Source: an uncultured Bacteroidaceae bacterium
GTDB taxonomy: Bacteria > Bacteroidota > Bacteroidia > Bacteroidales > P3
Assembly (NCBI GenBank): GCA_964616965.1
Contig: CAZTVH010000002.1
Span: 1 to 43,920 of the forward strand
Direction: 5' to 3'
DNA: 43,920 bases
Shown in pieces: positions 4,213-40,335 of this stretch. The notes under the pieces were generated by a model, which was not told where the DNA came from, did no database searches, and was given only the letters and a program-made list of their open reading frames with translations. Every line of letters starts with the position of its first letter. Positions within the stretch are counted from its first letter, which is position 1. A program made the position numbers and the translations under genes.

Positions 4213-5310
4213 CTATTTAACGATAAGTTCCAAGACCCTGTTTACGTCCTCTTCAGACAATTCGTGATGCATCGGAAGGCAGATGACTTCGTTTGCAATT
4301 CGCGTGGCAGTCGGTAGGTTTTCTGTGGCAGCACTCGGCAAGCCACGATAAGTGCTGAACGTACTGATAAGAGGATAGAAATATCGGCGGCTCATAATAC
4401 CTTGTTCCCGCATCTTGAAGAATAGCTCATCACGAGTCATGCCATACTCGTCAGCATTGACAAATATTGGGAAATAGCTATAGTTGTGCTTCACGCCTGG
4501 CATATCGTCAAAGAATCGAATTCCTTTCACTGGACGAAGAGCCTCACGGTAGCGTATTGCCACACGGTGGCGCGACTCAATAGCAGAATCAATCTGGCGG
4601 AGACACAGCAAACCAAAAACGGCCCTCACCTCGTCCATCTTGCTATTGATACCGGGAGCTATAACTTCCGTCTCACTTTCGAAACCAAAATTCTTGAGAT
4701 AGTCAATACGCTGTTTGGTCGATGGATCGTGCATTACCATAGCACCACCCTCTATCGTATTGAACACTTTGGTGGCATGGAAACTCAAAGTAGAAATGTC
4801 GCCATACTCTAAGATAGACTTCCCATCTACTTCGACACCGAAACAATGGGCAGCGTCGTATATCACTTTCAGCCCGTATTTGTCTGCAATTTGCTGGATA
4901 CGGACTATGTCGCACGGTTTCCCATAACAGTGAACGGGCATGATGGCAGTTGTTCGAGGGGTGATGGCAGCCTCAATCTTGTCGGGATCCATGCCGCAAT
5001 TGCTAGGGTCGATGTCAACGAAGACGGGTTTCAGACCATTCCACCAAATGCTATGGGTGGTGGCCACAAAGCTGTAGGGGGTCGTTATCACCTCACCACT
5101 AATTCTCAATGCCTGCAGAGCAGTGAGCAATGGTAGCGTACCGTTGGTGAAGAGGCTGATATACGGTACCTTGAGATAGGTGCAAAGAGCCGCTTCTAAT
5201 TGCTGGTGGAACTGCCCGTTGTTGGTAATCCACTTGCTCTCCCAAACCTTTTTCAACATCTGGGTGAACTCGTCCAAATCTGGCAGCAGAGGTGTGGTGA
5301 CGTTCATCAT
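4213..5310 (-). CDS. DegT/DnrJ/EryC1/StrS-family PLP-dependent sugar aminotransferase
   Basis: 365 aa. SFHATKVFNTIEGGAMV contains the PLP-lysine motif, and the family-typical N-terminus is WITNNGQFHQQLEAAL. Last gene of the locus. Confidence 0.85.
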   Translation of the reverse strand: MMNVTTPLLPDLDEFTQMLKKVWESKWITNNGQFHQQLEAALCTYLKVPYISLFTNGTLPLLTALQALRISGEVITTPYSFVATTHSIWWNGLKPVFVDIDPSNCGMDPDKIEAAITPRTTAIMPVHCYGKPCDIVRIQQIADKYGLKVIYDAAHCFGVEVDGKSILEYGDISTLSFHATKVFNTIEGGAMVMHDPSTKQRIDYLKNFGFESETEVIAPGINSKMDEVRAVFGLLCLRQIDSAIESRHRVAIRYREALRPVKGIRFFDDMPGVKHNYSYFPIFVNADEYGMTRDELFFKMREQGIMSRRYFYPLISTFSTYRGLPSAATENLPTATRIANEVICLPMHHELSEEDVNRVLELIVK

Positions 5311-5375
5311 AGGTTAATTTACTGAAGTTTGAGAAGTTTCGCTTTGGGACCATAGCCAATCTCTGACCTCCTCAC

Positions 5376-5417
5376 AACGTTCTGCTTCTGAGAGCGGAGA
5401 ACGACCTCAGCAGAGGT
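5376..5417. repeat. Partial or degenerate copy (copy 4) of the intergenic repeat family
   Basis: ctgcttctgagagcggagaacgacctcagcagagg resembles copy 2 plus strand (ccgctccctgaagcgga...gagaacgagcagag). Confidence 0.4.
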
Positions 5418-5591
5418 AGAAATAGGTATAGGCATGGGATTGTTTGTGTACAGACTCATTGAAAATACACAATTGCAATAATTTAGGGTGTCGCTCAAAA
5501 ATGCGCTTGCCAACCTATAGTCGTTAACCCTAACACATATACAAGCAGGCCAAACCTGCCAACATACTATCATTCAGTGTTAGGCCAAGGG

Positions 5592-8099
5592 CTACTTTCT
5601 CTTTCTCAATCTCCGGCCTGATTCGGTAGTTGATTTATTACCACCTTCTTCGTCGTCATCCTGGTTTACCGTCTCACTATAGCCGTAGCCATAGCCGTAG
5701 CCATAGCCATAACCATAGCCGTAACCATAGCCATAACCATAGCCGTAACCATAGTTGCGACCATAGATGGGCTGCTTTTCGTATTTCACATCATTCAGTA
5801 TGATGCACATGTTGGGGAAGGCACCGTCTTTGTAGAGACGCTCCACATCAAGCAACATTCGTTTGTCGAACTTTCTTGCACGGATAAGGAACACTGTGTG
5901 GTCGGCAACGTGTTTCACTATGTCGGTATCCACCACCATACCTGCAGGAGTACCGTCGAGAATGATATAGTCGTATTTGTCACGGAGATAGTTAATCAAA
6001 TTATCGAACAGAGAAGTACTCAACAACTCGGCAGGATTGGGCGGCAGCGGACCCGAAAAGAGAGAATCAACACCTGCAGCAATCACATCGTGCTGGATAA
6101 GGCTGTCGATATCAGACTCCTTTTGCGTAAGATAGTTCACAAGGCCGGGTTTTTTGCGAGAGTAGAATTTGCGTGTCAACGCGCCCTTTCGCAAATCTAG
6201 GTCTACCAACAGCACCTTCTTGCTTGCCAATCCGATACTGGCGGCAAGATTGCTAGTGGTGAAAGTTTTACCAGACCCGGGCACAAGAGATGAGAACAAC
6301 AAAATTTTAGCCTTACCTTGCTGGGTGGTACCCAAGAAGTCGATCTTTGCTCGCAAGTGTCTAAACGATTCGGCAATGCCGTCGTGTTCTTTCTCTGTTA
6401 TCACGATGTTACGGTCATCGTCATCTGGCAAAGCGGGAATTTCGGAGAGGAAGGGGATCGTGGTAGCCGATTCAATATCCGCATAAGTTTTCACCTGTGT
6501 GTCGAATAGTCTCTTCAGCAGATAGAAGGCCACCGGGACAAGTAGACCAATGATAGCACCGACAAAGGTCATGTGCGGGGTATTGGGCGACACTGGGACT
6601 TTGTTAGGCATTGCAGGATCGATAATCTTGGCATATCCCTCCAAAGAAGGTTTGCTTATCATCAGTTCCTCACGGCGGGTAAGCAGTGATACATACAACT
6701 CCTCTTTAATCTTCTGATTTCTCTCCAACTCGTCCAAATGCAAGCGCTGGATAGGCACGGCACGAACTCTTGCCGAGGCCTCGTTGGCGATATTGCGTTC
6801 GTTGACGATGCGCTGTTCCAAGGAAGATATGTAGCCCTCGGTCATGCTGATGAGGTCTTCGCGTTGTTGATTTTGGTTCTCAATGGCACGGGCAGCGACA
6901 GGGTTGTTCACTGTCCCCATCTCCTTATAGCGGGCCACGGTCTGAGCGTGGCTGTTGTACTTAGTCAGATAAGATGCCACAACGCCGTTAGAAACGGCAC
7001 CCATGGGCACCACCTCAGTACCGTCGCTAGCCTTGATGCTCGAGAGCAGGTCGCGAGCCATACTCAGCTCATTCTGCAGACGGGCAGCCTCATTGTCCGA
7101 CCGCAGGCTAGTGCTGACATACCCACTACCGAAAGCTCCAGATGCCATCACGTCCGAGCTGCTACGATATGCAGCAATGGCTGACTCTTGGGCACCCAAA
7201 TCACTACTAATAACGTTAATACGTTCATTAATATAATTATAGGTATCATTGATAATGCGTTTCTTGTCGTTTACTGCACCTTCGTTGTAAACGCGGATTA
7301 CCCCATTGATAAAGTCGGCACAACGCTGGGGAGAAGAGTCTTTCATATAGAGGTTCAGAATCGTATTGCGGTCGTCGTTGCGCTTCACCGTCAATCTGCC
7401 ACGGTAATATTCGGCAATGGACGACACATCTTGGTGGTCCACCCTGATTTCCTGCCCCACAGACCTATCCACAAAGGTCCATGTCTTGTGAACCGTCATT
7501 CGGCCCATCGGAGTCATCACCGGTTTGTCTAACGGAATCAGCAGAGCGTGATGATTCGGACGACGCAATAGTACATGGCCCTTATCCACAATCTTCAATG
7601 TTAAGTAATTAGGGAGCATAAAACCATTTGAGTCAAACTCCAATTCCACTGGCGAGATGGCATAGAGATTCTTTGTACGTTTCAAGAACCGGGTCTCAGT
7701 GCTATACATCACATTCAGTTTCAACTCTTCCACCACCTTTTGGATGGTCGATTTCGAAGTCAAAATCATCATCTCGTTGTTGATGGTACTGGAATAGAAC
7801 GGCTTGAGGCCCAAGGCATTCTTAATTGACATCTCTCGTGTATCGTCATCGCTGATGCCTAAACTATTGCCACTTCGGATTAGAATCTTCGCCTGACTAT
7901 AATAAACCTTGTCCTGTCGGCGTGCCACAAAGTTTGCAATCAAACCACCTATGACAGCGAAGATAATCAGCCAATGAATATTGCGGAGCAAAAGAAAAAT
8001 CAAATCCTTGATATGGAACGAAACAGACTGCTTCTCGTCAAGGAACGACAGATTAGTGTAGTTGGGATTTGTATTATTTGTATTGTTTGTATTGTCCAT
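5592..8099 (-). CDS. wzc: Polysaccharide co-polymerase / BY-kinase (Wzc-like, PCP-2a)
   Basis: 835 aa. Two TM segments (IHWLIIFAVIGGLIANFV and MTFVGAIIGLLVPVAFYLL) flank a long periplasmic region. Walker A is VPGSGKTFTTSNLA, A' is LLVDLDLRKG, B is YIILDGTP. A Tyr-rich C-terminal tail is present. Confidence 0.9.
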   Translation of the reverse strand: MDNTNNTNNTNPNYTNLSFLDEKQSVSFHIKDLIFLLLRNIHWLIIFAVIGGLIANFVARRQDKVYYSQAKILIRSGNSLGISDDDTREMSIKNALGLKPFYSSTINNEMMILTSKSTIQKVVEELKLNVMYSTETRFLKRTKNLYAISPVELEFDSNGFMLPNYLTLKIVDKGHVLLRRPNHHALLIPLDKPVMTPMGRMTVHKTWTFVDRSVGQEIRVDHQDVSSIAEYYRGRLTVKRNDDRNTILNLYMKDSSPQRCADFINGVIRVYNEGAVNDKKRIINDTYNYINERINVISSDLGAQESAIAAYRSSSDVMASGAFGSGYVSTSLRSDNEAARLQNELSMARDLLSSIKASDGTEVVPMGAVSNGVVASYLTKYNSHAQTVARYKEMGTVNNPVAARAIENQNQQREDLISMTEGYISSLEQRIVNERNIANEASARVRAVPIQRLHLDELERNQKIKEELYVSLLTRREELMISKPSLEGYAKIIDPAMPNKVPVSPNTPHMTFVGAIIGLLVPVAFYLLKRLFDTQVKTYADIESATTIPFLSEIPALPDDDDRNIVITEKEHDGIAESFRHLRAKIDFLGTTQQGKAKILLFSSLVPGSGKTFTTSNLAASIGLASKKVLLVDLDLRKGALTRKFYSRKKPGLVNYLTQKESDIDSLIQHDVIAAGVDSLFSGPLPPNPAELLSTSLFDNLINYLRDKYDYIILDGTPAGMVVDTDIVKHVADHTVFLIRARKFDKRMLLDVERLYKDGAFPNMCIILNDVKYEKQPIYGRNYGYGYGYGYGYGYGYGYGYGYGYGYSETVNQDDDEEGGNKSTTESGRRLRKRK
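5679..5753 (-). repeat. Hexanucleotide repeat encoding (YG)12Y in the Wzc tail
   Basis: 25 consecutive codons alternate TAT/TAC and GGC/GGT (plus strand ata/gta and gcc/acc). Confidence 0.95.
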
Positions 8100-8151
8100 C
8101 GTCGAATAATAATTGAATGGTGAAAAGAAATGAAACTACCTGGGCGGAATA

Positions 8152-8931
8152 TTAATCCTTAGGCTTCAAATAGCCGAAAATTGTAACGATAAAAGTCAGT
8201 GTCGAAACACCTATCGATAGCCATGAGGCGAAATTCCTTGCCTCACGGCGGGGAGTATCCTTAGTGTAGTTTTGAGTGATGATGAAATCGTTCTGTTGCA
8301 ACATAAAGAAAGGGTCCTGAAACACCGAAGAAGAGCGAGGGTCGAGATACCTCATCACCATCTTGCCGTCTACTTCGCGCATCACGGCAATCTTGTTGCG
8401 GCTGGTATAGGCGTTCAGTCCGCCCGCCAAGGCTAATGCCTCCAAGAAGGTGCATCGCTCGTTGCTGATAGTGATAGCCTTGCCGCCCTCGGCACCTAAG
8501 AAGAAAATCTTGAAGTTGGAGAATCGTACCACCACCACCGCGTCGGTTAGCATCCCATTGGCAATCAAAAGGTGGCTGATGGTATCCTGCAATTCCAGAC
8601 GAGTCATACCCGACACATGGATTGCACCCAGTACCGGGAACTGGATATTGCCATTCACATCCACCAGATAGGCTCCACGGCGATAGCTAGCCATGTTATT
8701 CGTCGAGAACGAACTGAGGTTAAAGGGCTTTGCCTGTACCTCGTCCGAGGAGAAGACGAAAATGTCCAACTCGTCGTAGGGGCAGATATGTGCCTGAAAC
8801 GCATTTTCGAGTTCGATTTGGGTGCCATGACGCATATCCTGTAGATAGTTCACCTCGGCAGGTGTGAGACAGGAACTCAAAAGCAACCCAGATAACAAAG
8901 AAATGAATAGTAACTTGTACACTCTTTTCAT
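8152..8931 (-). CDS. wza: Outer-membrane polysaccharide export lipoprotein (Wza/OPX family)
   Basis: 259 aa. Lipoprotein signal LLLSSC. Poly_export-like region is NYLQDMRHGTQIE...DELDIFVF. SLBB-like segment and C-terminal hydrophobic helix WLSIGVSTLTFIVTIFGYL. Confidence 0.8.
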   Translation of the reverse strand: MKRVYKLLFISLLSGLLLSSCLTPAEVNYLQDMRHGTQIELENAFQAHICPYDELDIFVFSSDEVQAKPFNLSSFSTNNMASYRRGAYLVDVNGNIQFPVLGAIHVSGMTRLELQDTISHLLIANGMLTDAVVVVRFSNFKIFFLGAEGGKAITISNERCTFLEALALAGGLNAYTSRNKIAVMREVDGKMVMRYLDPRSSSVFQDPFFMLQQNDFIITQNYTKDTPRREARNFASWLSIGVSTLTFIVTIFGYLKPKD

Positions 8932-9067
8932 GGTATGATAAATAAGATTGGTTAATAACGAGTTTTTTCCCTTTTTATTGCAAACATTGTTGAAAAACTT
9001 CTTCTGTCAACTTCTGTCCACCACTTCAAAAAGGTATGAAATAACATTACGGAAAGCGAATGCAGTG

Positions 9068-9820
9068 CTAATTCGATTGTTTTCTTCTTATCAAAAGATG
9101 TTTGACGCAATTCTTAATGGTCTGAGAACAAAATTCTTTAACATACTTAAATCCCAAAGGGTTCCACCGCTGAGGATGGGTAGTGATAAGCATGGCGTAG
9201 TGTGACTTCCGAAGAGGCGATTCAGGATTTTCCAGTTGGGCTATTACGTCGTCTGTGGTGTGGAACACAAGCCCCTGCGACTCCCACTGCTCTTGATACT
9301 GAGGTATCTTGTCGCGGACACTAACATGGTATCCATCCCACCGCCGCCCCGTGTCGGTAATATAGAGGGTTCGTGAGAAATCGGTATCAAAATAAGGTTC
9401 ATAGTCAATCCCCAGCGAATGGTAGTCGTAATGCTGCCAGAGGTCTTTGCTATCATAAGGGCTGCGTGGCGAGCCATGCATACAGATTTTGTTGATGGGG
9501 ACTATCTGCCGCAATTTCGCCAGATTATCACAAAAATCGCGATAGGCCTCTTCCATGTTTCCGCGACAGGTAGTTAGCGATTCATAATGATAACCTATCT
9601 CATGCCCTAGGGCAAAAATGGCCTTAACAATTGTCTCATTATAACTCTCTGGAACCATTCGAAAGTAATACACCGCCTTGAGACCTAAGCTATTTTCTAT
9701 CTCGGCTGTCCGCAACGAATTGTGTGGAAGCAGGTCGACATCATGTCTCAATTGAAACGAAACACCACTCTCCTTGAGAGCCTCCAACAACTGAGTATAT
9801 TTTCGAAGAGTAAAATCCAT
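9068..9820 (-). CDS. Hypothetical protein, possibly a CE4-superfamily (polysaccharide deacetylase-like) enzyme
   Basis: 250 aa. LRHDVD, HEIGYHYE and CMHGSP resemble the Asp/His metal-site motifs of divergent NodB-fold deacetylases. This is motif-level recognition only. Confidence 0.4.
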   Translation of the reverse strand: MDFTLRKYTQLLEALKESGVSFQLRHDVDLLPHNSLRTAEIENSLGLKAVYYFRMVPESYNETIVKAIFALGHEIGYHYESLTTCRGNMEEAYRDFCDNLAKLRQIVPINKICMHGSPRSPYDSKDLWQHYDYHSLGIDYEPYFDTDFSRTLYITDTGRRWDGYHVSVRDKIPQYQEQWESQGLVFHTTDDVIAQLENPESPLRKSHYAMLITTHPQRWNPLGFKYVKEFCSQTIKNCVKHLLIRRKQSN

Positions 9821-9868
9821 GAAACTAAACGCTGATTATTGTCACGAAAAGACTGATGACTCGACCAA

Positions 9869-11068
9869 TCAAAGTGACTTATTAATTCTGTCGACAATTT
9901 GTTGGGAAGCATTACCTTCACCATATGGGTTAGACACCTTACTGATTTCGTTGTAATAGTCCTCATTCTCAATAAGACGGCTCACTTCGCTTATTATGAG
10001 ATTATAATCTGTGCCAACAAGCTTCACCGTGCCCGCATCAAGGGCTTCGGGACGTTCGGTAGTGTCTCGCATTACCAGGACTGGCTTACCCAAGCCAGGT
10101 GCCTCCTCTTGTATTCCACCACTGTCTGTAAGCACCAAATAGCTCTTCTCCATCAAACAGACGAATGCAATGTACTGGAGCGGCTCGATAAAGAAAAAGT
10201 TGGGGTAAACCGAAAGGTCTTCTCCAAACACCTCATGGATAGGTCTGCGGACATTCGGGTTAAGATGCATCGGATAAACAAAATCCACATTGGGATACAT
10301 CCTCGACAAATCTTTCATGGCGGTTAACATGTTGATAAACCCTTCACCGAAATTCTCTCTTCGGTGACCCGTAATCAACACCAGCTTGCGGCCTGCCAAG
10401 CAGTCGTCTACAACACCCGTCTCACTCCCCATGCCACTTATTCGTCCTATGTCATAACCTGCTGCAGCAAGTATCCTTTTTTGCTCTTCGGCAAGAGCCT
10501 TATCCTTCTTTAGTTTATCCACAACCATAAGAAGGGCATCAATGACCGTATTACCCGTCACTACAATCCTCTTTTCATCCACATTCTCATCAATGAGATT
10601 TTGTCGGTTGAGAGTGGTCGGTGCAAAATGGTATGTGGCAATACGTCCCGTTATCTGGCGGTTCATCTCCTCCGGCCAAGGACTATAGATATTGCGTGTA
10701 CGAAGACCTGCTTCGACATGTCCGACAGGTATTTGTTGATAGAACGCTGCCAATGCGGCTGCGGTACTGGTAGTGGTATCGCCGTGCACCAACACCACAT
10801 CAGGCTGCGTCTGTTTCAACACATCGCGCATTCCGAGCAATACCCGCGTAGTTACATCATATAGGTCTTGCCCCGGCTTCATAATATTCAAATCGTAGTC
10901 GGGTTTCACTTCGAAAATCTTCAACACCTGATCAAGCATCTCTCGATGCTGCCCTGTCACACAGACTGTCGTTTCAAAGTCATTAGGATACTCTTTAAAC
11001 TTTCTCACTAACGGACACATCTTAATGGCTTCGGGTCTTGTGCCAAAGACTATCATAACCTTTTTCAT
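9869..11068 (-). CDS. wecB: UDP-N-acetylglucosamine 2-epimerase (non-hydrolysing)
   Basis: 399 aa. Motifs MIVFGTRPEAIKMCPLV, HVEAGLRT and LVLTDSGGIQEEAPGLGKPVLVMR. It carries an extra Gly/Ser-rich insertion, ISGMGSETGVVDD. Confidence 0.92.
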   Translation of the reverse strand: MKKVMIVFGTRPEAIKMCPLVRKFKEYPNDFETTVCVTGQHREMLDQVLKIFEVKPDYDLNIMKPGQDLYDVTTRVLLGMRDVLKQTQPDVVLVHGDTTTSTAAALAAFYQQIPVGHVEAGLRTRNIYSPWPEEMNRQITGRIATYHFAPTTLNRQNLIDENVDEKRIVVTGNTVIDALLMVVDKLKKDKALAEEQKRILAAAGYDIGRISGMGSETGVVDDCLAGRKLVLITGHRRENFGEGFINMLTAMKDLSRMYPNVDFVYPMHLNPNVRRPIHEVFGEDLSVYPNFFFIEPLQYIAFVCLMEKSYLVLTDSGGIQEEAPGLGKPVLVMRDTTERPEALDAGTVKLVGTDYNLIISEVSRLIENEDYYNEISKVSNPYGEGNASQQIVDRINKSL

Positions 11069-11078
11069 CGTCTACTAC

Positions 11079-12302
11079 TTAGATGTGGTACGTTCCTTCT
11101 ATTGGGCAGATATTATGACAATCCAAAATGACTTTCCCCTTCAGCTTATCCCAATTCTTCAAGATATGACTGTGCTTCACCATTATCACCACCATATCCA
11201 CTTCTTCCACAAACAGGTCGAAATCAAGAATTTGGTTGGGTGCCACAGCCTTATCGGTAAAGAACGGGTCGAAACTCTTCAACGGATTGGCAAGGTGGCG
11301 TTCCTGAACTCCAAGTAGCTGCAGGGTTGGGCTCTCACGTATATCATCCACATTCTCTTTGTATGTAATACCATAAAGGCCTACTCGGCTGCAATCCGTG
11401 ATACCTTGCTGGCGCATGATTTCGTATATCCGTTCCAACACAAAGACCGGCTGGGTATCGTTTGTTTTCATCGACTCATTTATCACGTTGGCAAGTTGTG
11501 GATAGTCGCCCACCAAGAACCAGGGGTCAACACTGATGCAATGCCCCCCCACACCAGGTCCGGGCTGAAGGATGTTCACACGGGGGTGCATATTGCAAAT
11601 ACGGATTATCTCATACACATCCATATTGTCATGCCGACAAATACGGGCCAACTCATTTGCAAAAGCGATGTTCACCGCACGGAAAGTATTCTCTACGACC
11701 TTGGTCATTTCAGCTGTGCGGATATCGGTGACAACTATCTCTCCCTGACAGAACGAAGCATAGCACTGACGGACACGCTCCCCCACCTCACGGCTGTCTG
11801 CGCCAATCGTCCTATTGTTGTGTATCAACTCGTACAGCATATTGCCAGGGATGATGCGTTCTGGAGCATGGACAAGGTGCAGGTCTTCCCCTATTTTAAA
11901 ACCTTTGGATTCAATCACAGGCCTTACAAACCTGTCTATCGTTCCCGGAGAGATGGTCGACTCTATCACCACTACACTCCCTTTCATACACACCTTCATC
12001 ACCTCACTCACCGCTGCCACCACATAGCTCGCATCCACCTTCTTCGAAAACTTATCATACGGGGTCGGAACAGACACTATATACATATCCGTCTTCTGGT
12101 ATTCTGTCGTAAACTTGATTCCCGCTTTGACAGCCGATGAATACAGTTCAACCAAGCCTTCTTCTTTGAAAGTGGTGTTACCCGCATTTAGCATCGCTAC
12201 CAACTCCTTGCTATAATCCGTACCCACCACTTCCAGCCCATGCGATGCCATCATGAGGGCCGTTGGGAGGCCGATATATCCTAATCCTATTACGTTAATC
12301 AT
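11079..12302 (-). CDS. wecC: UDP-N-acetyl-D-mannosamine dehydrogenase
   Basis: Start revised to ATG 12302 ([19 protein letters not shown] Rossmann motif). This forms an ATGA overlap with the upstream stop. Catalytic-Cys region is [16 protein letters not shown]. The ORF-track start at 12380 adds 26 implausible residues. Confidence 0.9.
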
Positions 12303-13820: not shown

Positions 13821-13841
13821 AATGATAAGACTAGATATGTA

Positions 13842-32375: not shown

Positions 32376-33464
32376 TTACTTCACTATGCCTTTTTCTAGG
32401 TATTCGGCTAGGTTGTAGCGCACCTTGGCGGCCGCATCATCGGAGGCCACCTTGGCCATGTCGCTCTCTACCATGAGCCGCACGAGCTGATGGAAAGGGG
32501 TTTTAGAGGGGTTCCAGCCCAGCAGCCGCTTGGCCTTAGAGGCATCGCCCAAGAGGTTCACCACGTCGGTGGGACGGTAGAAGTCGGGGCTGACCTCGAC
32601 CAGCACGCGGCCGGTGGCGCAGTCGATGCCCTTTTCATCCACCCCTTCGCCTTCCCAGCGCAACTCGATGCCGACATAGTGGAACGCCAGCTGGCAGAAC
32701 TCCCGCACGCTATGCTGCTCGCCTGTGGCGATGACAAAGTCGTCGGGCCTGTCGTGCTGGAGTATCATCCACATGCACTCGACATAGTCTTTGGCATAAC
32801 CCCAGTCGCGCAACGAGGAGAGGTTGCCCAGTTGCAGCCGCTGCTGTTTGCCCTGACGGATGCGCGCCGCTGCCAATGTTATCTTGCGCGTGACGAAGGT
32901 CTCGCCTCGGCGCTCGCTCTCGTGGTTGAAGAGGATGCCGTTGCAGCAGAACATGTTGTAGGCTTCGCGGTATTCTTTGACAATCCAATACCCGTATAGT
33001 TTCGCCACAGCGTAAGGGCTGTATGGGTAAAAGGGGGTCTCTTCGTTCTGAGGCACAGACACAACGCGTCCGTACAGTTCAGAGGTGCTGGCCTGATAGA
33101 TGCGGCAGCTATGCTCCAGCCCGCACTGGCGCACCGCCTCTAGGATGCGCAGCACGCCGGTGGCATCGACATTGGCCGTGTATTCGGGAGCATCGAAACT
33201 GACCTGCACATGGCTCTGTGCAGCGAGGTTGTAAATCTCGTCGGGACGGGTTTTCGCCACCAGCTGGATGATACTCAGCGTGTCGCCCATATCGCCATAG
33301 TGAAGGTGGAATTGCTCGTGCCCTTCGAGGTGGGCTATCCGTTCGCGGTAGTCTACGGACGAACGTCGGATGATACCATGCACTTCGTAGCCTTTGGCCA
33401 AGAGAAATTCGGCAAGGTAGCTGCCATCCTGTCCGGTGATACCTGTTATCAGAGCAGTTCTCAT
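32376..33464 (-). CDS. gmd: GDP-mannose 4,6-dehydratase
   Basis: 362 aa. [26 protein letters not shown] and YAVAKLY. Confidence 0.95.
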
Positions 33465-33521: not shown

Positions 33522-34658
33522 TCACCGACGCAGTCCCATCTCTTTCACGCGCTGCATCACCTGCTCAATGACGGGTGCCATGTCGTAATACTTGTATTCT
33601 GCCAAACGGCCTCCGAAGATAACATCATTTTCATGGTCGGCCATAGCTTTGTATTGCTGGTAGAGGGTATCGTTACGGGCATCGTTGACGGGATAGTAGG
33701 GCTCCATGCCTGGCTTCCACTCGGTGCTGAACTCTTTTGAGACCACGGTCTTGGGACAGTCGTAGACGGCTTGTCCAAACATTTCGAAATGTTTGTGTTC
33801 GATGATGCGGGTGTAGGGCACTTCACGGTCGGTATAGTTGACCACCGCGTTGCCCTGATGGTTGGAGGTATCCATTATCTCGTGTTCGAAGGTTACTGTC
33901 CGAAAGTCGAGATGGCCTAATTTGAAATCGTAGTATTCGTCAATCTGGCCAGTATAGACTATCTTGTCGGCCAATGGCACGAGCTCGCCACGATGGGCAT
34001 GGAAGTCGCAGCCGAGGCGAGTCTCCACACCGTCGAGCAGCCCCTCGACCAGACGGTTGTAGCCTCCACAGGGCACCCCTTGGTAGAGGTCGTTGAAATA
34101 GTTGTTGTCGAAGACAAAGCGCAACGGCAACCTCCGAATGATAAAGGCGGGCAGGTCGACACATTTGCGGCCCCACTGCTTCTCGGTGTAGCCTTTGATT
34201 AGCACCTCGTATATATCGTGGCCCACCAGGCTCAAGGCCTGCTCTTCCAAGTTTCGGGGGGCCTCGCCATGCAACAACGACAGGGCCTCGGCACGCTGCT
34301 CCTCTATCTTGGCTTTCGCCTCTTCGGGCGTGGTGACACCCCACATCTGATAGAAGGTGTTCATATTGAAAGGCAGATTGTATAGCCGCCCCCGATAGTT
34401 GGCCACGGGGCTGTTGGTGTAGCGGTTGAAGGGGACTATGCTGTTCACAAGGTTCCACACCTCTGTGTTAGAGGTATGGAAGATGTGGGCACCATATTTA
34501 TGGACATTGATGCCTTCTATATTCTCGCAATAGACATTGCCACCCAGATGCGGACGCTTGTCGATGACCAGACACTGCTTTCCCGCCTGCCGGGCAAAAT
34601 AAGCAAAGGTGGCTCCAAAGAGTCCTGAGCCAACAATGAGGTAGTCGTAGCGTTTCAT
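33522..34658 (-). CDS. glf: UDP-galactopyranose mutase
   Basis: 378 aa. YDYLIVGSGLFGATFA, HLGGN and GRLAEYKYYDM. Confidence 0.93.
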   Translation of the reverse strand: MKRYDYLIVGSGLFGATFAYFARQAGKQCLVIDKRPHLGGNVYCENIEGINVHKYGAHIFHTSNTEVWNLVNSIVPFNRYTNSPVANYRGRLYNLPFNMNTFYQMWGVTTPEEAKAKIEEQRAEALSLLHGEAPRNLEEQALSLVGHDIYEVLIKGYTEKQWGRKCVDLPAFIIRRLPLRFVFDNNYFNDLYQGVPCGGYNRLVEGLLDGVETRLGCDFHAHRGELVPLADKIVYTGQIDEYYDFKLGHLDFRTVTFEHEIMDTSNHQGNAVVNYTDREVPYTRIIEHKHFEMFGQAVYDCPKTVVSKEFSTEWKPGMEPYYPVNDARNDTLYQQYKAMADHENDVIFGGRLAEYKYYDMAPVIEQVMQRVKEMGLRR

Positions 34659-34715
34659 TTCGAATTGAGAGTTGAGAATTGAAAAATGAGGATTGAAAAT
34701 CAGCTGCTATGCCGG

Positions 34716-36200
34716 TTATTTCAAGATATATCCTTCTTTATCGCCCAGCACTTGATAGACTTGGTAGTTGCCTATATCATAAAGATGCTCCATGTAGAGG
34801 ACACTGTTCCAATAACTGATTTCGTCGGGAGTGCTTAAAACCATTTTTGTCATGTCCTTGGGATAGCGGCCCGAACCTTCAAAATACAGATTACCATTGG
34901 TGGGGGCAAGATAGTAGTACCATTTGTATGGAACGTATGTCGACTCTTGGCTGTTGATATGGGCAGCCTCTATATCGCGCATGTTTTGTGCGTCCACCTC
35001 ATGCCGGAAGTCAATCCGCTTCCTATCGCGATAGGAGGGACTCAGGCAGAACCACACGCACATTCCCACACATACCACCGGGACCAGCAGGCGTTGGGTA
35101 TGGGTGCGACTGACCCACACGCAAAAGGCAATCAGACACGGCAAGTAGGCCACCCAGGTGTAGTACCACGCATATCGGCCTGCCAAGATAAAGAACCACG
35201 GGGCGAGCAGCCCTGAAAGCAACAATGCCTTCTCGGTCTGCGAAGGCTTGGTCTTCTCCCTGCGGCATAGCGCTACAATGCCCAATATCACAACCATCGC
35301 TGCCAACACCAGGTACTCTTTGTTAGCAAAAAGCCCCTCGATGGTCATACTGTCGATACGCTCCCAGAAGGTCATCGTCTTTTCGATTGGGACATTGTTC
35401 TCGAATGAGAGGCGACCTGTCTCAAAGAAGTGGATGATGCTCTGCATGGTGTAGCTGAAGCCGAACATCGTCTGCAAAAAGGCTTTTGCACAATGATGGC
35501 TCGCCATAAAGGCAACCACCCCGGCAAAGGCGATAACAGAACTCAACCCATACCACACATATAGGCGCCACTGCCGCAGCGATTGGCGCAGGTCGACCAG
35601 ACCATGCAGCAGAAGCACTACGCAAGTGAACAACACCCCCTCAAACCCAGTCCACATCTGCAATGCGCTCCACACGCACATCCATGCCACATCCCATCGA
35701 TTGCCCGTCTGGTATGCACGAAAGAAAGCATCCAAGGTCAGCACGCCCAGCAGCAGGCAGAGGGTTTCCACCCGTCCACAAGTGAAGATACCAAACAGCC
35801 CGTCGGCAGCCCAATAGCCAAAGGCGAAACAGACTACAACCCATTTGGAGCGCAACAACTTGCCCCACTCGAAACGCAGACAAACCACCAAATAGGCAGC
35901 AAAAGCAAACAGCAGGTTGGGCAGCTGCGCGGTGAAATAGGAGAACCCTACCACCCTGTACCACACCGCCATAGTCAAGGCATACAGGGGGCTGTACGAA
36001 GGCTGTCCCCCACCCCACACATGGGTGATGAAATTGCCCTGCGACATACGGTAACCCCAGTCTGCCCAAAAGGCATCGTCATACCACGACTCATGCGGTC
36101 GAAAGCAGAGCATAAACACCCCTACGGCCAGACCTAACAGCCCTAAGGCTATGGCCAGACCCTTGGAGTCAATCCGATTGTTACGCCATATGGGTTTCAT
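34716..36200 (-). CDS. Polytopic GT-C fold glycosyltransferase (GtrC/ArnT-like role)
   Basis: 494 aa with at least 11 hydrophobic segments. First-loop acidic motif is SWYDDAFWADWGY. It lies directly downstream of the GtrA- and GtrB-like genes. Confidence 0.55.
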   Translation of the reverse strand: MKPIWRNNRIDSKGLAIALGLLGLAVGVFMLCFRPHESWYDDAFWADWGYRMSQGNFITHVWGGGQPSYSPLYALTMAVWYRVVGFSYFTAQLPNLLFAFAAYLVVCLRFEWGKLLRSKWVVVCFAFGYWAADGLFGIFTCGRVETLCLLLGVLTLDAFFRAYQTGNRWDVAWMCVWSALQMWTGFEGVLFTCVVLLLHGLVDLRQSLRQWRLYVWYGLSSVIAFAGVVAFMASHHCAKAFLQTMFGFSYTMQSIIHFFETGRLSFENNVPIEKTMTFWERIDSMTIEGLFANKEYLVLAAMVVILGIVALCRREKTKPSQTEKALLLSGLLAPWFFILAGRYAWYYTWVAYLPCLIAFCVWVSRTHTQRLLVPVVCVGMCVWFCLSPSYRDRKRIDFRHEVDAQNMRDIEAAHINSQESTYVPYKWYYYLAPTNGNLYFEGSGRYPKDMTKMVLSTPDEISYWNSVLYMEHLYDIGNYQVYQVLGDKEGYILK

Positions 36201-36284
36201 TGCGCAGGTTTGCTATTGCATGATTGCTTGAGGGTTTACTCATTTGAGCCCATAGCCACTCAAACATTTGCACACTTAAAGGCA

Positions 36285-37007
36285 CTACTTTGCCAATGAC
36301 TTGTTTATCTTTCTGAAATCGCCAAGCGATTTGAGCCCTATCTTGAATATACGTTTCAGATTGATGGAGTTCACACCACCCTGACGGGGACGGAATGTAA
36401 TCGGATACCAACCAATCTTCTCCTTTTTCTTCACCGCAATGGCACTCACCGCCACATTGGCAAGGAAGAAATCCTGAGGGATGTACTCCATGACAGCCTG
36501 CAGCCGTTTGGCATTCATAAGACGGAACGGAGTGTTGGAATCTTTTACCCACACATGGAACATCAGCCACACCACAATCCGCAAGGTTCTTGTCACCACA
36601 ATCCGCGAAAAACCGTCCTGCCTGCCACCGCGCGTGCCTATTTGGAAGTCATAGTCGTGGCGGTGCTCCCACATCTGCCAAAACTCGTCGGGCAGAGTCT
36701 GCCCGTCGCTGTCGGTCTGAAACACATAGTCCGCCCCGTGCTCTAATGCGTAGCGATACAGATACAGCACCGTGGCCCCATGTCCCGAATTGGGCTTGTC
36801 CAATGGCAGGAGGTATTTATAGCTGTTCTGCAATTGGCTCAAGATAGAGAAAGTACCATCCTTGCTGCCGTCATTGGCAATCACCACTCGGGCTTCGCCT
36901 CCCTCGGCATTGACGCGCTCCGCCACAGGGTGCCACTGCCGGACCACATCTTCTATATTAGCCTCCTCATTGTATGCGGGCATCACCAGATAAAGAGTCT
37001 CTTTCAT
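36285..37007 (-). CDS. GT2 polyprenyl-phosphate glycosyltransferase (GtrB/ArnC/DPM1-like), short form
   Basis: LVMPAYNEEANIEDVV, ANDGSKDGT and QTDSDGQ. 240 aa, so it lacks the two C-terminal TM helices of classical GtrB. Confidence 0.65.
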   Translation of the reverse strand: MKETLYLVMPAYNEEANIEDVVRQWHPVAERVNAEGGEARVVIANDGSKDGTFSILSQLQNSYKYLLPLDKPNSGHGATVLYLYRYALEHGADYVFQTDSDGQTLPDEFWQMWEHRHDYDFQIGTRGGRQDGFSRIVVTRTLRIVVWLMFHVWVKDSNTPFRLMNAKRLQAVMEYIPQDFFLANVAVSAIAVKKKEKIGWYPITFRPRQGGVNSINLKRIFKIGLKSLGDFRKINKSLAK

Positions 37008-37419
37008 TCTTTGTCGGTTTAAAGGTTATATACTTGTTTAATATAAACTGAATCAAAGCAACCACCACGATGGTTATCAGTTTGCACACTATCTCGTTCC
37101 ACGATGCCAAGTCGACCATGATATACAACATCAGCGTCGATATGCCCAAGCCTGTCAGGCCGACAAGATAGAACGACAAAAACCGCAGCGAGGTCTTGTC
37201 CTTAATCTTAAAATTCAACTGACGGTTGAGTATAAAAGAGGTGAAAATGCCAATATGCACACTGACTATGTTTGCCCACAAATAGGGCAATATGTCGAAA
37301 TGACAAAGGAGGGTGTAGATGACAAAGTCCAACGTCGCACACACCGCACCTATAATCCCGTATAGGATGAGATTACGAAAACGGCGGTACAAACCAGAAA
37401 CAGTATCCAACAATTTCAT
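36967..37419 (-). CDS. GtrA-family small membrane protein
   Basis: 150 aa with four hydrophobic helices. N-terminal RFRNLILYGIIGAVCATLDFVIY is typical of GtrA-like proteins. It overlaps the next gene by 41 nt. Confidence 0.7.
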   Translation of the reverse strand: MKLLDTVSGLYRRFRNLILYGIIGAVCATLDFVIYTLLCHFDILPYLWANIVSVHIGIFTSFILNRQLNFKIKDKTSLRFLSFYLVGLTGLGISTLMLYIMVDLASWNEIVCKLITIVVVALIQFILNKYITFKPTKNERDSLSGDARIQ

Positions 37420-37440: not shown

Positions 37441-38310
37441 TTACACCGTGTCCATGAAACTCTTCTGCGTCTTATTGAAGATGACTATTCCCAAACCGAG
37501 CAATATCACCATAAACACAAAACTATACGCCAGCCAATGCCAGCCGACAAACTCACCCGCGCCCAAAGCCCCATACTTGAATGACTCCAGCACCGGGGTC
37601 ACGGGGTTGAGCCGCATGATGGTGTATAGGTCGAACCCTGCCACCATCTTTCCCTTCACCAAACTAAGCGGATATACAATCGGGGTGGCATACATCCACA
37701 ACGACACCACGAACGAGAACAAAATCTGCAAGTCCCTATACTTAGTGGTCATACTCGATATCACAAGGCCGAATCCCAAAGCCAGCCCCGCCATCATCAG
37801 CACCAACAGGGGAAACAGCAGCACATACCATGTCAAATGCGCATTGCATCCCTGTATGCCATAAATAACATACACCACGATAAAGAGCCCCATCTGGATG
37901 CCAAACCGCAGCAGATTAGACGTCACATTGGCCAGCGGCGTTATCAGACGTGGGAAATAGACCTTGCCAAACAATCCGCTGTTGCTCACAAAGGTATTGG
38001 ACGTACGGCTCAGGCAGTCTGAGAAATACTGCCACATACAGGTACCCGCCAAGTAGAACAACGGCTGGGGAATGCCATCGGTGCCGATGCCGGCAATGCC
38101 GCCAAACACCACCATATACATAACGACCGTCATCACAGGCTGTATCACAAACCACAACGGCCCCAACACTGTCTGCTTATATTGCGTAATGATATTGCGC
38201 TTCACAAATAATGTGTAGAGGTCGCGATACCTCCACAACTCCTTAAAATCAACCGCCAGCAACTTGTCCTTCGGCTTAATGACGGTTGACCATTCTTGCG
38301 TCTCTGTCAT
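37441..38310 (-). CDS. wzm: ABC-2 type polysaccharide exporter permease
   Basis: 289 aa with six hydrophobic helices. N-terminal ELWRYRDLYTLFVKRNIITQYKQTVLGPLW is the classic Wzm/KpsM/TagG opening. Confidence 0.88.
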   Translation of the reverse strand: MTETQEWSTVIKPKDKLLAVDFKELWRYRDLYTLFVKRNIITQYKQTVLGPLWFVIQPVMTVVMYMVVFGGIAGIGTDGIPQPLFYLAGTCMWQYFSDCLSRTSNTFVSNSGLFGKVYFPRLITPLANVTSNLLRFGIQMGLFIVVYVIYGIQGCNAHLTWYVLLFPLLVLMMAGLALGFGLVISSMTTKYRDLQILFSFVVSLWMYATPIVYPLSLVKGKMVAGFDLYTIMRLNPVTPVLESFKYGALGAGEFVGWHWLAYSFVFMVILLGLGIVIFNKTQKSFMDTV

Positions 38311-38349: not shown

Positions 38350-39537
38350 CTAGTGCGAATGCTTATGATGGAAAAATATATTCCCCACAATGCCCCAGAA
38401 ATATTTCCAATCGGTCCTGAAGGGGTGCTTCAGATAAGCCTCCACATACCGCCGCTCCGACTCTTGGATGCCCTCCAACGTCTCGGGCTGCTCCTTCTCA
38501 TAATAGAGCGGCGGTAGTAGGCCGGGCTTGGTCTGTATTCTCAACTGCTGCATCTCAGGCGTATACAGGCTGAAAAACTGTTTCGACAAAGGCCTCACAC
38601 CCACCAGCTTCATCTCCCCCTTCAACAAATTCACAACCATCGGCAACTCGTCGAGCCACGTCTTGCGCAAAAACGCTCCCATCGTATTCACTCGGTAGTC
38701 GTGATAGAACTTACCCGTCTTATCCAACCGCCGGTGCTGGTACACATATTCCTGCAGATACTCACTATACGAATACATCGTGCGGAACTTATACACCGTT
38801 ATAATCTTTCCGTTCTTGCCCACCCTCCGCAACTTGGCTATCGGCGACGAGCTGGGAACCCCTTCCCGTATAGGCTCCTTGGCCTTGCGGGCTATCACGC
38901 GAAACTCCCCGTGTGCCGTATTCTCATACACCACCTCGAAACCCGCATGATACAGCCGCCCCAATATCTCCACGCGGTGGAACGTGCGGTTGCGCCCCTT
39001 GCTGATGGCAAAATAGATATTCTTCAACCCCGCCACCTTCGGAAACACCCGGTGCCACAGATAGTGGAAACCATAATAAACCCTGTTTATCCCTTTCGGA
39101 TAGCGGCTGTAGATAACCGCCTTCTTCACCGACGACGTGCGGCAACAACACACCAAATACCCCCCCTGCGTCAAATTCTCGTTGGCGTTGAACAAAAACT
39201 TGTCAAGCTCATAAATCGTGTGCAGCGGACGCTTCACAAAAATAGCCTCATACAGCCCACCCTCTGCCTTACACTGCGGAAGCGGGTTCCCACCGTTGTT
39301 CTTCATCCCCCACAGCAGCGTGGTGGGGGCAAACTCGTCGTGATGGTCTGCAAACCAACGGTACACCTGCTTAATCGGCTCCTGCTCCACATGCTCAAAG
39401 ACCCTGCGCACATCCGCATTCTCAATGTCCTCGGCCTTCAAATCGTCACACCCCTCGCTCCCCTGCTCGACAAAGTTGCCGGCAGGAAAGTACATTTTCC
39501 CCTTTACAGGATCCAACGGAAACAGCGGTTTTCTCAT
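38350..39537 (-). CDS. Polyprenyl-phosphate glycosyl-1-phosphate transferase (bacterial sugar transferase domain) fused to an N-terminal domain of about 230 aa with no obvious TM helix
   Basis: C-terminal RRVGKNGKIITVYKFRTM and LRKTWLDELPMVVNLLKGEMKLVGVRP. I see no hydrophobic stretch of at least 18 aa in the N-terminal part. Confidence 0.75.
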   Translation of the reverse strand: MRKPLFPLDPVKGKMYFPAGNFVEQGSEGCDDLKAEDIENADVRRVFEHVEQEPIKQVYRWFADHHDEFAPTTLLWGMKNNGGNPLPQCKAEGGLYEAIFVKRPLHTIYELDKFLFNANENLTQGGYLVCCCRTSSVKKAVIYSRYPKGINRVYYGFHYLWHRVFPKVAGLKNIYFAISKGRNRTFHRVEILGRLYHAGFEVVYENTAHGEFRVIARKAKEPIREGVPSSSPIAKLRRVGKNGKIITVYKFRTMYSYSEYLQEYVYQHRRLDKTGKFYHDYRVNTMGAFLRKTWLDELPMVVNLLKGEMKLVGVRPLSKQFFSLYTPEMQQLRIQTKPGLLPPLYYEKEQPETLEGIQESERRYVEAYLKHPFRTDWKYFWGIVGNIFFHHKHSH

Positions 39538-40031
39538 TCCGTAATCGTTTCTAAAAACTCAGGCGGTATATGCATAGTCGCAACAGCTGCCACACCCCTC
39601 ACACTCACCACCAGCCGCCTGTCCTTCTTAATTCGCTTGATATAACCTTCGGCACCCTTGAACACCCCCTCCGTCACCCTCACACGGTCGCCTTTATGAT
39701 ATTCGGGCCTGTCCTCGCCCAGATAGCACAATCCCTGCTGCCCCGCCGTGCACACGAAGATAAACACCTCCATCTCACGGTCCGGAATTGCCGAGGGCTT
39801 GTGCGTCAGCGGGTCGCGATAAACCCACAGCTTGTCATGATAATCGTTCTCAAACTGCGCCACATAGCCATTCGTGGCCTTCACAAACAACAGCGATGCT
39901 ATCATACTCGGAATAAAGAAGTCCACCCCGTCCACCGCCAGTTGCTCCCTCAGCGGTGTCATCCTGTTGTAATACACCTTCATCGCATACCATCGCGCAA
40001 CCTCTGGTTTTTCCTCCTTATTCATCATCAA
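39534..40031 (-). CDS. upxY: UpxY-family (NusG-like) locus-specific transcription antiterminator
   Basis: 165 aa. NGN-like WYAMKVYYNRMTPLREQL and KOW GDRVRVTEGVFKGAEGYIKRI. First gene of the locus, with a 4-nt overlap onto the next gene. Confidence 0.85.
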   Translation of the reverse strand: MMMNKEEKPEVARWYAMKVYYNRMTPLREQLAVDGVDFFIPSMIASLLFVKATNGYVAQFENDYHDKLWVYRDPLTHKPSAIPDREMEVFIFVCTAGQQGLCYLGEDRPEYHKGDRVRVTEGVFKGAEGYIKRIKKDRRLVVSVRGVAAVATMHIPPEFLETITE

Positions 40032-40327
40032 TCACTCCTTACCTATACTGCCTGTCTTGAACTATTCATTTCCTTTCTCCGCCTCACCAGCCTTCCCCTC
40101 GCTCGCCGTGCCCACACTCCCCCACACTTTACGCCTCGGCAAACACACCCAATCCACCCTCGCCCACAGGCACAATTCTCCTCCTCCCCCTATGCAGCGG
40201 CACGAGGCTTCTGGATGATTCATGGATTTAAATAACCCACTTTTACGCCCACCCCTATCCAAGGGCGGTAACGTAATCAACCTTTGCTGTGTATATTATA
40301 AAAAACATACAGCCCATTATCAGTTTG
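40032..40327 (-). promoter_or_regulatory. Long G-rich 5' leader of the glycan operon
   Basis: Lies between the -7 box candidate and the upxY ATG. In plus-strand line 40081-40140 I count 33 C against 9 G, so the transcript is G-rich and C-poor. Confidence 0.5.
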
Positions 40328-40335
40328 CAAATATA
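40328..40335 (-). promoter_or_regulatory. Candidate -7 box (minus strand TATATTTG) of the upxY operon promoter
   Basis: Exact TAnnTTTG match inside the only AT-rich patch of the 670-nt gap. The upstream GTTG/TTTC is only a weak -33. Confidence 0.5.

Follow-up and report, generated by a model that had tools for sequence, protein, structure and literature searches.

A glycan locus of uncultured Bacteroidales that combines a Wzm/Wzt-type ABC exporter with a Wza/Wzc-type outer export module: a candidate variant of capsule export

How does a glycan reach the cell surface when its locus encodes the inner-membrane exporter of one pathway and the outer export machinery of another? Polysaccharides handled by Wzx and Wzy are taught to leave the cell through a polysaccharide co-polymerase (PCP) of class 2a and an OPX (outer membrane polysaccharide export) protein, and those carried by an ATP-binding cassette (ABC) transporter either through a PCP-3/OPX pair or through WaaL and Lpt. 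The question is raised by a run of genes in a 43,920-nucleotide (nt) stretch of contig CAZTVH010000002.1, from an uncultured Bacteroidaceae bacterium, which is called here the window and to which, at its full length, all coordinates refer. The run encodes an ABC-2 permease (Wzm), an ABC ATPase (Wzt), an OPX lipoprotein (Wza) and a PCP-2a tyrosine kinase (Wzc), and neither Wzx nor a clear Wzy. The answer that we consider probable, by a fair measure and well short of certainty, is that the locus makes a capsule-like polymer by an ABC-dependent route, which would be decorated in the periplasm by glycosyltransferases (GTs) of the GT-C type and exported via PCP-2a and OPX instead of KpsE/KpsD, each functional step of this route being read from gene content and synteny.

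The gene calls, taken from the list of open reading frames (ORFs) and from Pfam and NCBIfam scans, give 33 credible genes, all on the minus strand and uninterrupted from 40031 to 4213, as the original prediction had it; an ORF of 84 amino acids (aa) at 5319-5573 has no family support and is counted apart from them. The visible boundaries that had been claimed for this run are likewise borne out: it starts with the gene of an UpxY-family antiterminator, which is the first gene and lies behind a TAnnTTTG promoter, the two marks of an UpxY locus, and it is closed by a pair of hairpins at 4113-4196, common to a convergent gene on the plus strand, with free energies of -17 to -23 kcal/mol on either strand and with flanking runs of A and T. 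Scans with sigma-70 promoter and generic terminator models are uninformative for Bacteroidetes, and the real 3' hairpins escaped them. Spacers range from -88 to +84 nt, with the exceptions of 136 nt (8932-9067), 281 nt (5311-5591) and the two longest gaps, of 372 nt (32004-32375) and 467 nt (17711-18177). Three gene pairs overlap by an ATGA, two of them as previously noted (12299-12302 and 20592-20595) and the third between upxY and the next gene (39534-39537). The single UpxY and this tight coding, with its three overlaps, argue for reading the run as a single locus. To call it 'self-contained' was too strong, since it holds no Wzb and no ligase, and since its initiating-transferase candidate is devoid of a membrane helix.

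All four export components, including the 835-aa kinase, score above curated Pfam/NCBIfam cut-offs, in agreement with their first identification from the letters alone (table 1). Wzm has five hydropathy transmembrane (TM) segments and a galactan export permease as its best NCBIfam match, and in Wzt the ATPase is followed by Wzt_C, a C-terminal carbohydrate-binding domain; the best NCBIfam matches of the two proteins are O-antigen or galactan exporters. Wzt likely starts at the ATG at 31057. Its homologues, 412-417 aa long, form at least 120 clusters at 64% identity or more, which marks the ABC core as common among uncultured Bacteroidales. Wzc matches TIGR01007 with 128.7 bits (cut-off 108), has two TM segments and carries the Walker A (PGSGKT), Walker A' (VLLVDLDLR) and Walker B (YIILDGTP) motifs of a bacterial tyrosine (BY) kinase, whereas the KpsE-type PCP-3 model TIGR01010 reaches only 18.5 bits against a cut-off of 437.5, and the kinase domain is complete. 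In Wza, a lipobox (LLSSC) is combined with a hydrophobic helix at the C-terminus (residues 234-252), and the protein matches the short OPX class of Bacteroidetes that Schwabe et al. suggested to work like Wza (PMC9601211).

No match to Polysacc_synt, MATE, Wzy_C or O-antigen ligase families was found at E <= 0.01 in any of the 34 ORFs, and the absence of Wzx and of a clear Wzy thus holds for the locus. A hydropathy census finds three or more TM segments in four proteins only, i.e. Wzm, a GtrA-family protein and two proteins of 465 and 494 aa, the same polytopic set that had been listed before. A wider census over the window and 94 related loci, in which ORFs counted from a length of 250 aa and a minimum of 5-6 hydropathy TM segments, returned members of the families of these last two proteins (GT-C2 and GT-C1, respectively, in what follows), MBOAT, Acyl_transf_3 and UbiA proteins, Wzm and an LtaS-like enzyme, and nothing else; no WaaL or Wzy_C family gene is present in any of the 94 loci. 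The absence of Wzx and Wzy therefore covers the locus and the sequenced stretches of its relatives. A confident Wzx or Wzy score for one of the multi-TM proteins would have undone the original prediction: neither of the two candidates gave one, and both look GT-C-like, GT-C1 by Foldseek and GT-C2 by the Pfam matches of its family. As for other partners, no match to LMWPc or PHP, which would indicate a Wzb phosphatase, and no KpsC/KpsS (Capsule_synth) Pfam match was found in the window.

Table 1. Features of the locus in their order 5' to 3' along the minus strand, with positions in the window and the basis of each call.
Feature	Position	Strand	Basis
Bacteroides-type -7 box TATATTTG, 5' of upxY	40328-40335	-	read directly
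UpxY-family NusG-like antiterminator	39534-40031	-	NF033644 111.7 bits, cut-off 100
Bac_transf phosphoglycosyl-transferase-like protein, 395 aa	38350-39537	-	Pfam Bac_transf 87.9 bits
Wzm, ABC-2 permease	37441-38310	-	ABC2_membrane (PF01061) 58.8 bits, cut-off 26.9
GtrA-family protein	36967-37419	-	GtrA_DPMS_TM 80.7 bits
GT2, 240 aa	36285-37007	-	best NCBIfam PpgS, PgfS, ArnC, all far below cut-off
GT-C1, GT-C glycosyltransferase, 494 aa	34716-36200	-	AlphaFold2 model and Foldseek
Glf, UDP-galactopyranose mutase	33522-34658	-	GLF 256 bits
Gmd	32376-33464	-	GDP_Man_Dehyd 484.6 bits
Fcl	31062-32003	-	GDPFucSynFcl 476 bits, just below cut-off 500
Wzt, ABC ATPase with C-terminal Wzt_C	29819-31057	-	ABC_tran 79.8 bits; Wzt_C 40.8 bits, cut-off 30.4
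Variable glycan-building block	20592-29800	-	Pfam/NCBIfam
GT-C2, GT-C-like polytopic protein, 465 aa	19198-20595	-	9 hydropathy TM segments
Precursor/modification block (first gene AlaDH-like)	9869-19137	-	Pfam/NCBIfam
unk250, cytoplasmic protein, 250 aa	9068-9820	-	directly 5' of Wza
Wza, short OPX lipoprotein, 259 aa	8152-8931	-	Poly_export (PF02563) 54.7 bits
Wzc, PCP-2a BY-kinase, 835 aa	5592-8099	-	Wzz; GNVR 38.8 bits; AAA_31 42.2 bits
DegT-family sugar aminotransferase, last gene	4213-5310	-	DegT_DnrJ_EryC1 330.9 bits
Two bidirectional hairpin terminators	4113-4152 and 4153-4196	both	read directly, folded

Whether the ABC genes and the Wza/Wzc genes belong together can be judged from related loci (designated L followed by a number), which were compared by tblastn with all proteins of the window. 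Relatives of GT-C2 were collected from GTDB genomes and JGI metagenomes, and comprise two metagenome-assembled genomes (MAGs), one of an uncultured Bacteroidales and one of Bacteroidales RGIG2732 from goat omasum, and 80 metagenome loci. A backbone of GT2_a (the GT2 gene beside GT-C2), GT-C2, a variable block, unk250, Wza and Wzc is conserved, and the junction from GT-C2 through the epimerase and GT4 genes, and further on from unk250 to Wza and Wzc, is kept in about 20-30 MAG and metagenome loci. The first part of this junction, GT-C2 followed by the epimerase and GT4 with or without the intervening AlaDH-like gene, is found in L006, L009, L010, L011, L015-L018, L053 and L070; in L009, L010 and L011 collinearity extends over the 467-nt gap and through the gene order of the precursor block at 75-97% protein identity. 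Where at least 9.5 kb is available 3' of GT-C2 (32 loci), unk250 is present in 30 and Wza and/or Wzc on the same strand in 20, and several of the loci without them end just past unk250. GT-C2 is thus, as far as these comparisons go, a conserved hallmark of the locus class, which is apparently widespread in uncultured Bacteroidales of rumen and gut.

The ABC genes are harder to see in such short sequences, because Wzt, which in the window is separated from GT-C2 by 9.2 kb, mostly falls outside the 10-kb flank of the relatives. In L053, L057 and L070, Wzt (71-88% identity) and Wza/Wzc nevertheless stand within 20 kb, on one stretch of 21 kb, and L011 has Wzt at 94% identity and is collinear with the window through unk250, where its sequence ends. 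A second arrangement is offered by L092, in which distant Wza, Wza and Wzc genes (24-29% identity) lie directly 5' of Gmd, Fcl, Wzm and Wzt (63-84% identity); the coupling of an ABC exporter to PCP-2a/OPX is thereby independent of gene order, the association having been assembled in two orders from different OPX/PCP lineages. L095 is of the same locus type and has a relative of Wzc at 50% identity, preceded by genes for a 467-aa protein without Pfam match (GT-C2-like by size only), a GT4, a 250-aa protein without Pfam match and Wza.

The polymer to be exported is probably an acidic heteropolysaccharide, the product of one UpxY-controlled locus. The precursor genes point to a polymer with fucose, galactofuranose (Galf), an aminouronic acid and an amino-dideoxy sugar. 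In the proposed route, GDP-L-Fuc, UDP-Galf, ManNAcA- or GalNAcA-type uronic acids and the amino-dideoxy sugar would be supplied by enzymes of the locus, and its GT2 and GT4 enzymes would complete the chain at the cytoplasmic face on a polyprenyl carrier. Wzm and Wzt would carry the polymer over the inner membrane, with Wzt_C probably reading the chain end as in E. coli O9a. Decoration would follow in the periplasm by GT-Cs that depend on polyprenyl-phosphate sugars, namely GT-C1 with its GtrA and GT2 partners (possibly adding Galf) and GT-C2. The conduit formed by Wzc and Wza, in the place of KpsE and KpsD, would then move the polymer through the periplasm and the outer membrane to the surface. 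An ABC-exported polymer linked to undecaprenyl pyrophosphate, once at the outer face of the inner membrane, would chemically be the same kind of substrate as that which Wzy gives to Wzc/Wza, so that Wzm/Wzt and cytoplasmic polymerization would simply replace Wzx and Wzy.

Among the periplasmic steps, that of GT-C1 can be described best. GtrA and the 240-aa GT2 are a probable polyprenyl-phosphate-sugar synthase pair, and GT-C1 is predicted to be the third part, with these two, of a three-component periplasmic glycosylation system. Only 13 homologues of GT-C1 were found among 5.8 billion proteins; one of them (P0008) is named GT39 by NCBI and another (P0010) matches PMT_2. An AlphaFold2 (AF2) model built on these homologues (predicted local distance difference test, pLDDT, 82.2; predicted template modelling score, pTM, 0.85) confirms a GT-C fold at the level of prediction: the top 32 Foldseek matches in the PDB, with E from 5e-7 to 9e-3, are all GT-C proteins, the best being ArnT (5f15, 5e-7) and the others including STT3, PglB, ALG9/12/3, EmbA/B/C and AftA/B/D, and no MOP, Wzy, WaaL or SEDS structure is among them.

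The GtrA-GT2-GT-C1 cassette is kept in L001 and L004-L008 and is portable. Glf travels with it in L001 and L006-L008, and is missing beside the trio in L004 and L005; in L001, from a Paludibacteraceae MAG, the trio and Glf form a stand-alone island between unrelated genes. This linkage suggests that the lipid-linked donor of the GT-C enzyme is polyprenyl-phosphate-galactofuranose, a donor of which we know no described case. The four-gene cassette occupies 33522-37419 (minus strand) in the window, 8873-12691 in L001 and 562-4386 in L006. L006 and L007 are a shorter version of the locus with the cassette inside, in the order UpxY, phosphoglycosyl-transferase (PGT)-like protein, Wzm, GtrA, GT2, GT-C1, Glf, Wzt, GT2, WbqC, GT2, deacetylase, GT2, GT-C2, epimerase and GT4. 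Other Wzm/Wzt loci of this group of Bacteroidales hold a (GtrA)-UbiA-HAD-GT-C module (L092, 12335-15440; L093, 14438-17546), which is reminiscent of the mycobacterial pathway to decaprenyl-phosphate-ribose/arabinose donors, and some of the group (L093, L094) have LicD and cytidylyltransferase genes.

For GT-C2 the assignment is made at the level of the family. The window protein itself stays under the Glyco_transf_22 cut-off (22.8 bits against 23.8) and reaches 16.6 bits with PMT_2, and across 49 family members PMT_2 is matched in 37 (best E 2e-8) and Glyco_transf_22 in 28; EpsG is matched weakly in one member and Wzy_C or Polysacc_synt in none. D103, K204 and E205 are invariant in the family; the first loop holds an invariant Asp. 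An hhalign comparison of GT-C2 with GT-C1 was not significant, and the single-sequence AF2 model of GT-C2 (pLDDT 42.7) is unusable.

Each part of the locus has relatives among known systems. (i) With the O-antigen systems of E. coli O9a and Klebsiella pneumoniae O2a and O12 it shares an ABC-2 permease, an ATPase with Wzt_C and the lack of Wzx and Wzy. The K. pneumoniae O2 locus has the order wzm-wzt-wbbM-glf-wbbNO with the three-component side-chain system gmlABC adjacent, and the 5' half of the present locus is alike in having Glf inside and a GtrA-like, GT2 and GT-C trio adjacent, which would decorate the glycan in the periplasm once exported. The O9a, O2a and O12 glycans are ligated by WaaL to lipid A-core and transported by Lpt with no OPX or PCP, whereas a conserved PCP-2a kinase and an OPX are present here, no ligase is seen and control is by UpxY. 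(ii) The 3' end resembles E. coli group 1 and colanic acid systems in its OPX with a C-terminal helix and its PCP-2a with Walker A/A'/B motifs and a tyrosine cluster, and differs from them by the lack of Wzx, Wzy and Wzb, by the shortness of the OPX and by inner-membrane translocation that relies on an ABC transporter. (iii) Cytoplasmic polymerization, an ABC exporter and a PCP/OPX conduit, as proposed here, would be common to group 2/3 capsules (KpsMT-KpsE-KpsD) and to Vi (VexABCD), but the PCP is a kinase-bearing PCP-2a and not a PCP-3, poly-Kdo genes of KpsC/KpsS type are missing and the ATPase is of the Wzt_C type and not KpsT. (iv) The trio of GtrA, a GT2 of about 240 aa and a GT-C is also found together in Shigella Gtr, mycobacterial PpgS-Rv3632-Rv3779 and streptococcal/lactococcal GacI-L and Csd systems; the cassette differs from these in that the NCBIfam matches of its GT2 are far below cut-off and in its company of Glf. 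(v) In cyanobacteria and in Vibrio cholerae O31, PCP-2a/OPX and ABC-2 genes are both implicated in the exopolysaccharide of one organism: the Synechocystis genes include Sll0923 (Wzc), Sll1581 (Wza) and Slr0977/Slr0982 (KpsM/KpsT) (PMC4594306, PMC8205485), and strain NRT36S is described as having a wzm-dependent capsule whose region also contains wza-wzb-wzc (PMC1847822). The two routes are inseparable there because Wzx/Wzy homologues are also present, and the genes do not form one tight operon; here, in contrast, Wzx and Wzy are absent from the locus and its relatives. Literature searches on UpxY or Bacteroides together with Wzm/Wzt returned no description of this locus type and no characterized ABC-dependent capsule in Bacteroidales.

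Several points weigh against the proposed route. Wzt_C is typical of O-antigen systems, which end in ligation by WaaL and not in OPX export. Direct co-occurrence of Wzt with Wza/Wzc is limited to a handful of loci, and the one candidate for an initiating transferase is without a membrane helix. The case for GT-C2 as a GT-C-like enzyme is the weaker of the two, its Pfam matches being sub-threshold or at family level, and the family profile found no match among PDB sequences. The 372-nt gap, with a second -7-like box inside, allows for more than one transcript. Wzx, Wzy, WaaL or Wzb could be encoded elsewhere in the genome, or Wza/Wzc could serve other loci. Finally, PCP-3 proteins are the standard partners of ABC systems and PCP-2a proteins those of Wzy systems (PMC12220298), and measured against this textbook scheme the present locus is a variant.

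The most serious competitor, unlikely in our judgement and yet to be reckoned with, is that an O-antigen-like glycan is exported by Wzm/Wzt and ligated elsewhere to lipid A-core or another lipid, Wza/Wzc being a house-keeping exporter mainly of Wzx/Wzy-made capsular polysaccharide. Such a division of labour would suit Wzt_C, the hallmark of O-antigen export under the control of a terminator (known from E. coli O9a and K. pneumoniae O12), the O-antigen and galactan exporters found as best NCBIfam matches of Wzm/Wzt, and the lack of anchor genes of KpsC/KpsS type among the Pfam matches of the window. Sharing of one OPX by several pathways is known from some bacteria, e.g. Synechocystis with XssT (PMC8205485). 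Several observations speak against it: about 20 relatives of this locus class have a conserved unk250-Wza-Wzc end, a different OPX/PCP-2a lineage is joined to a homologous Wzm/Wzt core in L092, the 94 loci contain no WaaL/Wzy_C gene, and a single UpxY precedes all genes of the locus.

A further scheme, which we regard as improbable, borrows the dual-chain assembly of Lactococcus cell-wall polysaccharide: the ABC transporter would deliver one lipid-linked chain or block, and GT-C2, a core gene and not one specific to a serotype, would as a periplasmic polymerase/ligase under the control of the Wzc kinase replace Wzy or WaaL by joining blocks or attaching the chain to an anchor. The usual task of PCP-2a kinases, which is to regulate a periplasmic polymerase (PMC12220298), would be accommodated in this way. 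So would the conservation of GT-C2 and its neighbour GT2_a (31-85% identity) where other transferases vary, a pattern expected of machinery and not of decoration, and the fact that GT2_a looks like an ordinary cytoplasmic GT2 and not like a polyprenyl-phosphate-sugar synthase, which leaves GT-C2 without a dedicated donor synthase beside it. The similarities of GT-C2, on the other hand, are only to PMT_2 and ALG9-like proteins, i.e. to enzymes that transfer single sugars from polyprenyl-phosphate donors; no usable structure model of it was obtained, and we know of no Gram-negative precedent for such a scheme. With as little confidence one may envisage a third style of capsule line, perhaps used by many uncultured Bacteroidales, in which a polymer or block is made at the cytoplasmic face from a helix-less PGT-like initiator and flipped by the Wzt_C-type ABC transporter, GT-C2 acts as a polymerase/ligase independent of Wzy and WaaL, the GtrA-GT2-GT-C-Glf cassette brings a lipid-linked Galf donor, and the PCP-2a gates export through the short OPX.

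The last alternative, a chance fusion of two normally complete loci (40031-18178 of ABC type and 17710-4213 of Wza/Wzc type), draws on the lower G+C content of 4213-14321, on the 467-nt gap and on a repeated intergenic element in the gaps, and is very improbable and largely refuted by synteny, given that the junction from GT-C2 to the epimerase and GT4 is conserved, that Wzx, Wzy and an initiating transferase are all missing from the left part, and that neither part was seen as a separate locus among the relatives examined. Of the two options of the original prediction, the hybrid export route is thus favoured and the fusion of two modules disfavoured, since the halves, whose independent occurrence in related genomes would have spoken for fusion, do not stand apart there, and the junction and the unk250-Wza-Wzc end are conserved.

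The start of the proposed ABC-dependent route deserves a closer description. The 395-aa Bac_transf protein aligns only to residues 368-477 of WbaP and 50-140 of PglC, and keeps KFRTM, DELP and LVGVRP, i.e. the catalytic core including the Asp-Glu dyad. It has no re-entrant membrane helix, the maximum 19-residue hydropathy over the whole protein being 0.7, and about 230 soluble residues stand in place of the helix. Its family counts 444 representatives (at 50% identity) at E <= 1e-30; sampled members are either long (502-662 aa), with an N-terminal TM bundle, or short (363-383 aa), without it, and none has a helix right before the Bac_transf core. The gene adjoins Wzm in all three loci whose sequence covers this region, i.e. 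the window, L007 (1165-2349) and L091 (5267-6448). On the other side of the exporter, GT2_d (28691-29800, minus strand) directly follows Wzt, and relatives of it (44-82% identity) do so in every Wzt-containing locus examined, including L006, L011 and L091-L094, with the exception of L053 and L057; coupled to the exporter, this GT2 may serve as a conserved adaptor or as a terminating transferase. No WbdD-like chain terminator was identified in the locus.

The genes between the exporter and the outer export module are those of precursor supply and modification. Gmd and Fcl, on either side of the 372-nt gap, make up the GDP-L-fucose pathway. The variable block holds four GT2s, an HMGL-like aldolase, an ATP-grasp amino-acid ligase, a polysaccharide deacetylase and two unknown proteins, and is partly swapped out in relatives. 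The precursor block comprises, in transcription order, the AlaDH-like gene, the 467-nt gap, a TviC-like UDP-GlcNAcA 4-epimerase, a GT4, a PaaK/F390-like adenylating enzyme, and then two hexapeptide acyltransferases, a DUF354 protein, a WecC-like UDP-ManNAc dehydrogenase and a UDP-GlcNAc 2-epimerase. That the polymer also bears substituents of a non-carbohydrate nature, acyl or amino-acid groups, is suggested by the genes for the ATP-grasp, PaaK-like, AlaDH-like and aldolase proteins. In the variable block of relatives, an AMP-binding enzyme is found with an MBOAT protein, a Dlt/AlgI-like pair (L010, 131-4298; L009, 3841-5379; L026, 3285-4691), and in that of others Acyl_transf_3 genes, both of which indicate extracytoplasmic acylation of the polymer.

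At the 3' end, unk250 gives no match in Pfam, NCBIfam or the PDB. Motifs recognized by eye (RHDVD, HEIGYH, RSPY) suggest that it may be a CE4-like cytoplasmic deacetylase and part of the conserved core. That it might be a beta-barrel with which the short OPX is partnered, like EpsX of Myxococcus, was considered and rejected, because unk250 lacks a signal peptide and a C-terminal helix is already present in Wza itself. The tyrosine cluster of Wzc is a near-perfect (GY) repeat of about 13 units (residues 779-807; 5592-5700), behind which the tail is first acidic and then basic. DegT does not follow Wzc in relatives; homologues at 62-72% identity are found inside other Wzm/Wzt loci.

Base composition is mosaic, with a G+C content of 0.46 over 4213-14321, 0.52-0.53 in the remaining locus and 0.55-0.58 in places of the flanks. 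A repeat of about 120 nt with the core TCCGCWTCAGGGWGCGGRTAAC occurs 5' of the upxY promoter (40480-40600) and within both long gaps (32200-32320 and 17911-18026) in copies about 70% identical; related loci do not have it, and no Rfam family is matched. Since Gmd and Fcl are 8-105 nt apart in relatives, the 372-nt gap resembles an insertion of this repeat. TAnnTTTG has only two intergenic minus-strand matches in the locus, the one before upxY and TACGTTTG at 32101-32108, inside the same gap and about 100 nt 5' of fcl, a possible internal promoter for fcl-wzt. No UpxZ was seen after upxY.

Upstream, the true neighbour of the locus is a Peptidase_M49 gene (40702-42378, minus strand), of which the plus-strand ORFs at 40222-42306 are shadows; one of these, a 6-TM ORF at 41224-42306, was ruled out as a hidden Wzy on this account. 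Outside the locus and on the opposite strand follow tRNA-Ser(GGA) (42464-42552) and a WcaE-like GT2 (42612-43445), which is 46-54% identical to the GT2 directly 5' of GT2_a/GT-C2 in at least ten related loci.

Taken as a whole, the locus looks like a real, uncharacterized variant of a known export pathway, whose pairing of exporter and outer module recurs in related uncultured bacteria of gut and rumen. If the proposed reading is right, the coupling of a Wzt_C-type exporter to a BY-kinase PCP-2a would mean that one outer export module can be exchanged for another, and would raise the question of what the kinase acts upon where there is no Wzy. A large class of surface glycans, so far overlooked, would also be added to those of Bacteroidales from rumen and gut, and such glycans would bear on phage susceptibility, on the interaction with host immunity and on automated pathway calls based on the type of PCP.

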